A stretch of DNA of 64,000 nt, taken from a virus. The position numbers were made by a program, and so were the translations under genes. The stretch lies in IMG/VR virus record IMGVR_UViG_3300023179_006341, positions 1-64,000 of that record. One strand, 5' to 3'. The first letter of the stretch is position 1, and every line of letters begins with the position of its first letter. Positions 14,223-17,281 of this stretch are shown piece by piece. The notes beneath the pieces are model-generated. The model was not told where the DNA came from. It made no database searches and saw only the letters and a list, made by a program, of their open reading frames with translations.

Positions 14223-15350
14223 ATGATTTTAACAAAAAGAAAACTTGTTAGTATGACAGTTGCTGCAATTACAGCACTTACTTTAGCAAGTTGCAGCAAA
14301 AAAGAAGAAGCTAAAGCACCTGCTGAACCACCTAAAGCAGCAGAACCATTAAAAGTTGGCTTCGTATATGTTGGTCCCGTAGGTGATGCAGGTTGGACAT
14401 TTGCACATGATAATGGTCGCAAACACATTGAAAGCAAGTTTGGTGATAAAATTAAAACTACATTTGTAGAAAAAGTACCTGAAGGTGCTGATGCTGAACG
14501 TGTTATTCGTGATTTAGTTAGCCAAGGTAATAAGCTAATTTTCGCTACATCATTTGGTTTTGGTGATGCTATGGAAAAAGTAGCAAAAGATCATCCTGAT
14601 GTTAAGTTTGAACATGCAACAGGTTATAAAACATCAGAAAATTTACGTGTATATGAAGCAAGATTCTATGAAGATGCTTATATGGCAGGTATTGTAGCAG
14701 GTAGTATGACAAAAACTAATACACTAGGATTTGTTGCTAGTTTTCCAATTCCTGAAGTATTGCGTAACATCAATGCATTTACAATGGGTGCAAGAAGTGT
14801 TAATCCTAAAGTTACTACCAAAGTTGTATGGGTGAATACTTGGTTCGATCCACCTAAAGAAGGTGAAGCAGCACAAGCATTAATTAATCAAAAAGCAGAC
14901 GTATTGTTACAAAATACAGATTCTACTGCAGTACTATTAACAGCAGAAAAGAATGGCAAATTTGCCTTTGGTTGGGATAGTGACATGAGCGCATTTGCTC
15001 CAAAAGCACATCTAGGTTCTGCCATCGTAAATTGGGGACCATACTACGAAAAAGCTGTTAACGATGTATTAAATGGTACATGGAAAACAAGTGATACCAA
15101 ATGGGGAACCAAAGAAGGTACTAATGATTTAGTGAAGATTAATGATGTCGTATCTGATGCTGCTAAGAAAAAAGTTGATGAAGTTAAATCATCATTAAAA
15201 GCAGGTACATTTGCAGTGTTTAAAGGACCACTTAAAGACAACACAGGTAAAGTTGTATTGGAAAAAGATGTGGTTGGTGATGATGCATGGAAGGGTAGGA
15301 TTAACTTTTATGTTGAAGGTGTAGAAGGTAAGATTCCTTCAGGTAAGTAA
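14223..15350 (+). CDS. BMP-family (PnrA-like) ABC transporter substrate-binding lipoprotein
   Basis: Lipobox LASC; KVGFVYVGPVGDAGWTFAHDNGR; FATSFGF; VNTWFDPPKE. Confidence 0.92.
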   Translation: MILTKRKLVSMTVAAITALTLASCSKKEEAKAPAEPPKAAEPLKVGFVYVGPVGDAGWTFAHDNGRKHIESKFGDKIKTTFVEKVPEGADAERVIRDLVSQGNKLIFATSFGFGDAMEKVAKDHPDVKFEHATGYKTSENLRVYEARFYEDAYMAGIVAGSMTKTNTLGFVASFPIPEVLRNINAFTMGARSVNPKVTTKVVWVNTWFDPPKEGEAAQALINQKADVLLQNTDSTAVLLTAEKNGKFAFGWDSDMSAFAPKAHLGSAIVNWGPYYEKAVNDVLNGTWKTSDTKWGTKEGTNDLVKINDVVSDAAKKKVDEVKSSLKAGTFAVFKGPLKDNTGKVVLEKDVVGDDAWKGRINFYVEGVEGKIPSGK

Positions 15351-15544
15351 TGTTTAATTCAGCCAATACAAGGTTATCACAAATTGCAAAACGTGCAGGG
15401 GTAGAATATACGGAAAGCATTGAGTTATTTGCTGAAATGATAGCTGAAGAATGTGCTGAAATTGCGGATACAGCGTGGCAGGTAAATTTATCTGCTGCGC
15501 CTGTTATTCGTAGACATTTTAATTTAATTGAGCCTAAAAAATGA
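15350..15544 (+). CDS. small hypothetical phage protein
   Basis: FAEMIAEECAEIA motif common in phage small proteins; coupled start/stop. Confidence 0.6.
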   Translation: MFNSANTRLSQIAKRAGVEYTESIELFAEMIAEECAEIADTAWQVNLSAAPVIRRHFNLIEPKK

Positions 15545-15690
15545 ATAACATTTCTAAAGATAATTTATTTATTGGTGTGTTTGTAGCATCATTAGTGTTG
15601 ATAGGTATATTTTTTGATATTGGAGAAACATGCATGATAGGATGGAACCCAATGTTAGGTGAATGTTCTGATATTGTTAAACCTAAATAA
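15541..15690 (+). CDS. 49-aa single-TM protein (not in the ORF track)
   Basis: ATGA overlap with the previous stop; LFIGVFVASLVLIGIFF. Confidence 0.55.
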   Translation: MNNISKDNLFIGVFVASLVLIGIFFDIGETCMIGWNPMLGECSDIVKPK

Positions 15691-15694
15691 CGTG

Positions 15695-15787
15695 ATGGAT
15701 TGGTACACACTAGGTTTACTTTTGTTTGTATGTATTGCAGTGTGGATTATAGAAGATATAATTTTACCAAAGTATCAAAATAAATAA
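15695..15787 (+). CDS. 30-aa membrane peptide MDWYTLGLLLFVCIAVWIIEDIILPKYQNK
   Basis: TAAATA (15684-15689) 5 nt before ATG; hydrophobic core. Confidence 0.55.
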   Translation: MDWYTLGLLLFVCIAVWIIEDIILPKYQNK

Positions 15788-15789
15788 TA

Positions 15790-16138
15790 GTATTGTTGTA
15801 TGAAGTTGATGGAAAAGTGCTGCGGACGAGGGTTCGAATCCCTCCCACTCCACCATAAATAGATTGAATGACTGAAGAAGAGATTAATAAAAGAAATTTT
15901 AAAATTAATGTTGTAATAATTTTATTAGTTTATGTAATAGGTATTACTGTTAATATAGTCTTTTTATGATGGGGTGGTATTAGGTTTCGACGGGGTAACA
16001 AGTACGGATATGGACAACACGATAGGCGAAGAACGTAATTCTAGCAAATCAAATAATCGCAAATGACGATTACTTTGGAGAAGTTCGCTTAGCTGCGTAA
16101 CCTCCACGAGGTAGGAAAGACCTTGTAACCAAACTACC
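15790..16138 (+). ncRNA. ssrA: circularly permuted (two-piece) tmRNA: acceptor piece about 15790-15855, intervening segment 15856-15970, coding piece from 15971
   Basis: T-arm GAGGG-TTCGAAT-CCCTC then CCACTCC-ACCA (15828-15855) lies upstream of GGGGTGG (15971). The two form a 7-bp acceptor stem with G3.U70. Tag frame 16059-16100 reads ANDDYFGEVRLAA*. Terminator follows. Outer ends approximate. Confidence 0.93.
15868..15969 (+). CDS. 33-aa membrane peptide inside the tmRNA intervening segment (MTEEEINKRNFKINVVIILLVYVIGITVNIVFL)
   Basis: Open frame fills the intervening segment; TAAATA at 15856-15861 6 nt before ATG; charged N-terminus plus TM helix. Confidence 0.55.
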   Translation: MTEEEINKRNFKINVVIILLVYVIGITVNIVFL

Positions 16139-16165
16139 TAGGGGCATTTGTGCCCCTATTTTTTT
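16139..16165 (+). terminator. rho-independent terminator after tmRNA
   Basis: taggggca-tttg-tgccccta then T-run. Confidence 0.85.
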
Positions 16166-16191
16166 ATAAATATCTTATAAGGGAGATATTT

Positions 16192-16627: not shown

Positions 16628-17281
16628 ATGCTTACAAGAGAGTTCATTCAAGAAGGTGTCAACGATCCTAATATTTTTAAAGCTGTGTTTATGGCAGGTG
16701 GGCCTGGCTCAGGTAAGAGTTTTGTCGCACGTCAGTTAGGATTACAAGCAGCAGGGTTACGCACCATCAATAGTGATGATGCATTTGAGTACCTACTAAG
16801 AAAACATCAACTTGACCCTAAAATGCCACCTGAAGAACAGGAAAAACGTGATATTATTAGACAACGTGCTAAAGATATTACTTCTACTAAACGATCACTT
16901 GCCATACAGGGTCGTTTAGGATTAATCATAGATGGTACTGCTAAAAATCCCGAAAAGACAGCATCAGTTAAACAAGGATTAGAAGCACTAGGTTATGACA
17001 CCATGATGATATTTGTTAATACAAGTTTACCTGTTGCTTTAGAGCGCAATCGTATGAGAGCAAGAAGCGTACCTAATGAAGTTGTAAAAAAAGCACATGA
17101 AGAAGTTCAACTAGGCAAAGAAGGATTAGAAAAAGTTTTTGGTAGCAGTTTTGTACAAGTTTTAAATGATATGGAACCTGATTTTAAACCTGCATACAAA
17201 AAATTACAATCATTTTTAAGAAAACCATTATCACCAAATGCCCAAGAATGGGTAAACATGCATACACAGCCCAAAAAATAG
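16628..17281 (+). CDS. P-loop kinase (zeta-toxin/AAA_33-like) with capsid-targeting-like N-terminus
   Basis: MLTREFIQE; AGGPGSGKS; IIDGT; ALERNRMRARSVP. Confidence 0.75.
   Translation: MLTREFIQEGVNDPNIFKAVFMAGGPGSGKSFVARQLGLQAAGLRTINSDDAFEYLLRKHQLDPKMPPEEQEKRDIIRQRAKDITSTKRSLAIQGRLGLIIDGTAKNPEKTASVKQGLEALGYDTMMIFVNTSLPVALERNRMRARSVPNEVVKKAHEEVQLGKEGLEKVFGSSFVQVLNDMEPDFKPAYKKLQSFLRKPLSPNAQEWVNMHTQPKK

Follow-up and report, generated by a model that had tools for sequence, protein, structure and literature searches.

Introduction

Permuted two-piece tmRNA genes occur in Alpha- and Betaproteobacteria and in Cyanobacteria (Keiler et al. 2000, as cited in PMC9004378). Two-piece tmRNAs are also known from phages and are common in those of aquatic and marine habitats, phage Melnitz being one example (PMC9004378). 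Cargo has been described within tmRNA genes, namely a tRNA-Ala gene or a repetitive element in the intervening sequence, as well as group I introns in the T-loop, some of them with homing-endonuclease genes (PMC11915505). The 2025 tmRNA database paper that reports these cases lists no protein gene in a spacer (PMC11915505), and a study of the Sinorhizobium small proteome concerns only the tag peptide (PMC10117765). In line with the initial annotation of the locus described below, which knew of no description of such an arrangement, our full-text literature search found no account of a protein gene in a tmRNA spacer.

The window that we analyzed is a stretch of 64,000 nucleotides at the start of an IMG/VR virus contig of 79.5 kb. 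This contig is estimated to be 23% complete and thus comes from a large phage, and the window encodes virion structural proteins and further phage genes. Its source is a large uncultured freshwater phage. The locus is present in lake, river and aquaculture metagenomes (12 studies), and a blastn search in distant mode of the phage GenBank collection gave no match to it. Our comparative analysis suggests that the spacer of its tmRNA precursor very probably also serves as a messenger.

Organization of the locus

According to ARAGORN, a single permuted tmRNA lies at 15763-16191; its tag is ANDDYFGEVRLAA. The Rfam model of permuted tmRNAs (RF04321, tmRNA_permuted) is matched over its full positions 1-213 with 108.7 bits, against a gathering score of 47. 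The best subtype model is that of the betaproteobacterial type (RF01850), yet it stays below its threshold (76.2 bits vs 84). The unit comprises the following features.

15780-15786, + strand: ATAAATA late-promoter-like box just upstream of the pre-tmRNA (putative function)
15794-15855, + strand: tmRNA acceptor piece with T-arm, 3' acceptor strand CCACUCC, discriminator A and CCA (RF04321 alignment, ARAGORN)
15854-15866, + strand: 5' strand of a 13-bp helix extending the acceptor stem (closing helix); holds the ORF leader and ATAAATA/ATAAAGA
15856-15970, + strand: intervening segment (IVS) of 115 nt between CCA and G1, presumably removed on maturation
15868-15969, + strand: 33-codon ORF, ATG to TGA, MTEEEINKRNFKINVVIILLVYVIGITVNIVFL, stop UGA at 15967-15969
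15956-15968, + strand: 3' strand of the closing helix, formed by the last codons (V F L) and part of the stop
15971-16165, + strand: tmRNA coding piece with 5' acceptor strand GGGGUGG, G1 being 15971
16059-16100, + strand: tag frame ANDDYFGEVRLAA, ending in LAA and then the stop
16139-16158, + strand: terminator hairpin with T run, the unit ending at about 16165

The 5' end of the acceptor piece (15794) is the start of the model rather than a mapped end, and in our reading of the sequence the piece is closed by the CCA at 15853-15855. The acceptor stem has 7 bp, in which CCACUCC-A-CCA (15845-15855) pairs with GGGGUGG (15971-15977), G3 lying opposite a U. A 159-nt contig of the riverine metatranscriptome X19 covers 15983-16134 with 0 mismatches and leaves the flanking protein genes uncovered, which is compatible with an expressed tmRNA. 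In the same data set, 31-mers end exactly at 15855, a weak sign because contigs cannot show RNA ends or levels. None of the assembled RNA contigs of X19 and X20 lies over 15856-15970, and this uncovered part is uninformative either way.

On the upstream side, a gene for a lipoprotein-like substrate-binding protein of ABC transporters of the Bmp/PnrA family is found at 14223-15350 (+ strand; PF02608, E 3.6e-57). It is kept beside the tmRNA in relatives and resembles an auxiliary metabolic gene that serves the uptake of nucleosides. Between this gene and the tmRNA, three small ORFs are packed within about 440 bp (15338-15777), and two further genes follow the tmRNA.

15350-15544: small ORF of 64 aa, upstream of the tmRNA
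15541-15690: small ORF of 49 aa with one hydrophobic helix, upstream of the tmRNA
15659-15787: small ORF of 42 aa (GTG) or 31 aa (ATG 15694) with one hydrophobic helix
16192-16617, + strand: staphylococcal-nuclease-like gene (PF00565), directly 3' of the tmRNA terminator
16628-17281, + strand: zeta-toxin/AAA_33-like kinase gene (PF06414, PF13671), downstream of the tmRNA terminator

The block 15338-15777 is absent from relatives, the stop of the Bmp gene being followed directly by the tmRNA in L123, L243, L244 and L246. In DNA contigs of runs X10 and X18, 15337 is likewise linked to 15778 through 7 letters of another sequence. We found no tmRNA remnant in the three-ORF block (15350-15787), not even a partial match at E up to 10.

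A reading frame under selection in the intervening segment

The initial annotation had claimed that a 33-codon ORF takes up almost all of the 115-nt segment, and both the sequence and the list of open reading frames confirm it. An ORF of such length arises in only 3 of 200 dinucleotide shuffles of the window's spacer, and the ORF interior is open in only 1.6% of composition-matched shuffles. In the peptide, a charged head (MTEEEINKRNFK) is followed by one hydrophobic helix that extends to the C-terminus. Its best 19-residue hydrophobicity (2.95) is higher than that of 99.85% of the open composition-matched shuffles (P=0.0015). The ORF agrees with its earlier description, the charged N-terminus and single transmembrane helix included. 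The product is thus predicted to be a small single-pass membrane peptide, and its orientation is taken to be N-in, C-out. Because no known family was matched, its role can only be guessed: it might be a membrane-active accessory of the host-takeover or lysis-timing kind. Upstream of the ATG, the window's leader UAAAUAGAUUGA lacks a Shine-Dalgarno motif, and nothing beyond AAGAG stands there in the relatives; GGAG, GAGG or AGGA stands upstream in only 23 of the 71 long ORFs of the window. The UGA stop is conserved and lies one base before the presumed RNase P site (G1 = 15971).

Pattern scans of viral and metagenome contigs yielded five further sequences with the same 115-nt IVS (L122/L124, L123, L243, L244 and L246). 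Together with the window they make up the six closely related sequences on which the comparison of this ORF family, termed family A, is based. A HMMER scan of 1.84 billion representative proteins returned a single match, P0001 (JGI/IMG, 44 aa). This entry is the family A ORF read through its TGA into the tmRNA (MTEEE...IVFLWWGGIRFRRGK), the gene caller having translated the TGA as an amino acid, and family A has left no other trace among these representatives; exact family A peptides are absent from the protein collection. Matches in PHROGs, Pfam and the ESM Atlas are at chance level, the best of them (E 0.04 and cosine 0.80) being to the small E. coli membrane proteins YniD and YkgR.

We then come to selection. 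Frame conservation and dN/dS in the spacers of relatives, the check suggested along with the initial annotation, speak for a gene: the 33-codon frame is kept with zero indels in all six sequences, and the summed pN/pS is 0.13 in the ORF frame against 1.28 and 3.83 off frame. Variable columns are distributed 6/2/13 over the three codon positions (chi-square p=0.012; six sequences) and minimum changes 6/2/16 (p=0.0015; six sequences). Between the window and L122, 12 of the 17 changes are synonymous (binomial p=1.1e-5). Across family A, Arg9 is encoded by AGA, CGG, CGA and CGT, and Thr2 by ACT, ACA and ACG. The pN of the ORF is 0.04-0.08, with replacements of the V/I, I/L and K/R type plus one L/S.

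Its pS, 0.3-0.6, is lower than that of the neighboring Bmp gene (pS 0.75 and pN 0.08 between the window and L123), which is saturated at synonymous sites. These values of the Bmp gene indicate that the genomes are far apart and not near-identical, and the lower pS of the ORF suggests that a constraint at the RNA level overlaps the coding constraint. In addition, the IVS is 83-97% identical and gap-free among the six relatives, whereas in the tmRNA coding piece of the same relatives identity falls to 52-81% and as many as 60 columns contain gaps. A discarded spacer that is better conserved than the adjoining functional RNA is under a constraint of its own, and the description of the spacer as a neutral landing pad for small genes loses its word "neutral" here.

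Altogether, we consider it likely from these comparisons that the IVS contains a real protein gene kept by selection, and it is from this selection that we infer translation of the ORF. The frame-specific purifying selection seen in six sequences thus upholds the proposal of a protein gene within the spacer that is otherwise thrown away.

The closing helix and a scheme for expression

The ends of the IVS had been noted to pair with each other through G.U pairs and one mismatch. This helix is real in the comparison: CAUAAAUAGAUUG (15854-15866) pairs with UAGUCUUUUUAUG (15956-15968), with G.U pairs and one U.U mismatch, stacked on the acceptor stem and constant across the relatives. In these it is perfect, a T of the window making the sole mismatch, and one of its pairs (47-141 of alignment A1) is U.G in three sequences and C-G in three. 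The AUG is located at the top of the helix and, in the relatives, its U and G also pair with CUGUUA 80 nt downstream. A start beside or within a stable helix counts against translation, as does the window's leader devoid of a Shine-Dalgarno motif. A helix of the IVS ends is found in every phage permuted tmRNA that we parsed, including ORF-less spacers of 16-90 nt, with a shared design of (A/U)AA(A/G) and so on after CCA and UUUU(A)UGAU before G1. The TAAATA and the ORF stop therefore lie within a conserved precursor helix.

We tentatively propose a co-transcriptional mechanism, to which we would grant not quite an even chance. A single transcript would be made from the ATAAATA box (15780), starting at about 15794 and running to the terminator at about 16165. 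Ribosomes would load the AUG at 15868 during transcription, before the 3' strand of the closing helix exists; the peptide would be made and the ribosomes would halt at the UGA, one base before G1. Thereupon the two ends of the IVS would close up as the 13-bp helix that stacks on the acceptor stem. The two tmRNA pieces would be freed by RNase P and 3' trimming, with the RNase P cut one base past the stop, and the excised IVS would be left with its leader paired (in the relatives its start codon too) and largely silent. In this manner a precursor of a stable RNA would double as a messenger, and peptide output would be tied to tmRNA transcription. RNase P is established for tmRNA 5' ends, and the enzymes of the scheme are borrowed from established tmRNA and tRNA maturation, while we infer the transcript ends, the timing of translation and the location and role of the peptide.

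The promoter question

The box at 15780-15786 is likely the promoter of the whole unit, judging from its position and from the ATAAATA box that also precedes the tmRNA in L123, L243, L244, L246 and L124. A different reading would accept the gene but give it a T4-type late promoter of its own, the ATAAATA at 15855-15861, from which a leaderless mRNA would start near the AUG at 15868. ATAAATA is depleted in the window (25 found vs 48.5 expected) and stands mostly at gene junctions. At six other ORF starts of the window, the box precedes the ATG by 5-7 nt, the distance being 6 nt in the IVS, so that the earlier remark about an own TAAATA box with the spacing of late genes has substance. The same remark fails when extended to a promoter of the family. 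All five relatives read ATAAAGA at this site, inside the conserved closing helix, and yet their ORF is kept under selection. A T4-type late promoter would combine a TATAAATA-like box with short spacing and conservation in relatives, and the box of the IVS is unconserved. Moreover, the motif is the 5' strand of the helix, ORF-less spacers are similar at this place (TAAACATA, AAAGCAT), the window's T is the only mismatch of the helix, and several of the short-gap boxes, whose promoter role is putative, overlap an upstream stop codon. The own box therefore cannot explain expression in the family, and we regard this reading as rather unlikely, although an internal promoter specific to the window's lineage is possible.

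The boxes elsewhere in the window fall into two classes. In the short-gap class, ATAAATA lies 5-7 nt before the ATG with no Shine-Dalgarno motif (16614, 36150, 42613 and 45636 on the + strand; 38886 and 9899 on the - strand); these might give leaderless late transcripts. In the second class, the box lies 18-24 nt upstream and is accompanied by a Shine-Dalgarno motif (13086, 16166, 18928, 42820 and 47532).

Spacers of other phages and of bacteria

Viral contigs were scanned with a pattern consisting of CTCCACCA, then 85-115 nt, then TTTWTGAT-GGGG, which gave at least 119 loci. From the matches listed, 89 permuted tmRNAs were parsed into 72 unique spacers, 61 of which have at least 90 nt. No overall frequency is given since the pattern, through its length and end motif, biases what is sampled. 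Among the matches listed, a forward ATG ORF of at least 24 codons is present in 29 of the 61 spacers of at least 90 nt, vs 3 on the reverse strand, and 24 of the 61 beat 95% of their own shuffles where 3 would be expected. The ORFs in these listed matches belong to at least a dozen unrelated families, the majority of which code for a single hydrophobic helix. Their ATG follows 7-20 nt behind the CCA, their starts and stops fall at the same positions in unrelated families, and the ORF-bearing spacers have a lower GC content (0.31 vs 0.41; all among the matches listed). Within the same list, an SD-like AAGGAG/AAGGA is found in 16 of 27 ORF-bearing leaders vs 9 of 34 ORF-less ones, and in ORF-bearing spacers other than the window's it commonly stands 5-9 nt before the ATG. 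The frames end either with a UGA one base before G1 or, in another frame, inside the tmRNA 5' end. In families D, E and F, pN/pS is lower in frame than off frame; in family B it is not.

Genes that flank these viral tmRNAs are phage genes, coding for a gp32-like SSB, an exonuclease and a polynucleotide kinase. Among the matches listed, the tmRNAs nearest to that of the window outside family A carry unrelated spacers, and the tag ANDEKFALAA is paired with four spacer types. Family A was not found outside tmRNA spacers, either in pattern scans of contigs or among the 1.84 billion representative proteins. When the same pattern was applied to one genome for each of 185,579 prokaryote species, it gave 110 loci with seven permuted tmRNAs, none with such an ORF. 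The many analogous ORF families in other spacers agree with the remaining part of the landing-pad idea, that of a slot for small genes.

The frame of families E, F and G continues past G1. Cleavage at G1 would leave such a message without a stop codon, and it would thus be a natural substrate of trans-translation. Read-through ORFs into the tmRNA 5' end are seen in L135, L136, L162, L177, L184 and L197 (family E), in L191, L217 and L140 (family F), and in L144 and L206; these frames cross UGAU-GGGG and have endings ...SLFDGD... or ...VFMMGVK. A wider hypothesis would be that the IVS of phage two-piece tmRNAs is a general expression slot for small, mostly membrane, peptides that arise in it or are exchanged. 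Translation would be mechanically coupled to tmRNA biogenesis, since with leader and stop in the closing stem the precursor would be translated only before folding. The fate of the peptide would depend on the ribosome rescue encoded by the same unit, because the message ends 1 nt past the stop or, in some families, is stopless. We hold this generalization to be possible but doubtful.

One would also wonder whether translation of the IVS could act mainly in cis, the ribosome holding the helix open and timing RNase P cleavage or folding, with the peptide being secondary. A processed message with almost nothing past its stop would be a near-natural trans-translation substrate. Such a role could account for a stop 1 nt from the RNase P site, for the final four sense codons and part of the stop serving as a helix strand, for starts and stops at the same positions across unrelated families, and for the families E, F and G, in which the processed IVS would be stopless. 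It accounts poorly for the conservation of the amino-acid sequence itself, as seen from the low pN of the ORF and its V/I, I/L, K/R and single L/S replacements, and the hydrophobic helix that most families encode would be of no use to a frame acting purely in cis. We find it improbable and retain the reading of a peptide-coding messenger.

Is the intervening segment conserved only as RNA?

A further hypothesis takes the ORF to be an incidental by-product: conservation of the IVS would then reflect solely a role of its RNA in guiding how the tmRNA pieces fold or are processed. The presence of the closing helix in all the phage permuted tmRNAs seen, short ORF-less spacers included, would fit with it, as would the reduced pS of the ORF relative to the neighboring gene. 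The last 27 nt of the ORF are invariant save one synonymous AAT/AAC site, and RNAalifold can draw a long rod through the IVS. On the other hand, this rod finds no support in the changes themselves. Not one pair inside the IVS is compensated, predicted pairs are disrupted by wobble changes, and the covariation term has a positive sign. From one relative to another the minimum-energy interior folds vary and the closing helix stays the same, and on its own the window's IVS has no folding advantage over shuffles (z = -0.14). For these reasons, interior structure was rejected as the cause of conservation. Moreover, the changes fall mostly on third codon positions, the signal appears only in the ORF frame and a single arginine is written with four codons. 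Unrelated ORFs also occupy the same place elsewhere, far above the reverse-strand and shuffle controls. We consider an incidental ORF very improbable.

With no compensated pair, differing folds and no excess of folding over shuffles, the alignments indicate that the interior of the IVS is constrained as protein and its ends both as protein and as RNA. A group I intron with a homing-endonuclease ORF was rejected, as no intron family matched in the locus even at E up to 10 and the insert lies between CCA and G1 and not in the T-loop.

Implications and comparison with known systems

Spacers from the precursors of stable RNAs are treated as waste and annotation never looks there for genes, so that a 33-codon ORF within an RNA gene is doubly masked. 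If the proposed reading is true, such spacers conceal a class of small phage proteins, most of them membrane-active. The locus would then be a compact natural case in which folding, processing and translation compete on one transcript, and a tractable place to study the birth of small genes in transcribed DNA that is rich in A and T. Another question would then be whether infection involves joint action of the ribosome-rescue RNA and the peptide.

The locus shares with the known permuted tmRNAs (RF04321, RF01850) the succession of acceptor piece, CCA, IVS and coding piece, the G3.U70 pair and a tag that ends in LAA. In the two-piece tmRNAs as described in PMC9004378, the IVS is a discarded RNA and no ORF is mentioned, whereas here it appears to carry a selected gene. 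The cargo reviewed in PMC11915505 is, like ours, extra genetic material nested in a tmRNA gene and removed from the mature RNA; it consists there of an RNA gene, a repeat or a selfish intron, and here of a 33-residue putative membrane peptide with no link to mobility. The seven bacterial permuted tmRNAs found in our scan differ as well, their spacers being of similar size and with the same end motif but without an ORF.

A parallel can be drawn with transcripts outside the tmRNA field. Type I toxin mRNAs, such as hok, tisB, fst and others, also encode hydrophobic single-helix peptides of about 30 residues and also have their start in a long-range 5'-3' pairing, by which translation would be restricted; there is no sequence similarity to them, and the comparison is made by peptide size and hydrophobicity alone. 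Co-transcripts of tRNA and mRNA are split by RNase P or RNase E, as in the tyrU-tufB operon of E. coli. There as, in our scheme, here, an ORF and tRNA-like RNAs depend on one promoter and are parted by tRNA-processing enzymes. However, the ORF stands beside complete tRNAs in that operon, whereas it lies here between two pairing halves of one RNA gene, and only here are the last codons and the stop shared with the processing helix. Finally, dual-function RNAs such as SgrS/SgrT, RNAIII/delta-haemolysin and SR1/SR1P encode a small protein, and there, as very probably here, one transcript is a functional RNA as well as a messenger for a small, often membrane-active peptide. A single mature molecule does both in these RNAs, while in the phage tmRNA the coding part would be excised and is enclosed by the stem that joins the two pieces. 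We thus rate the arrangement as akin to the known dual-function transcripts and tRNA-mRNA co-transcripts, in a form that makes use of a tmRNA spacer and for which our literature search gave no precedent.
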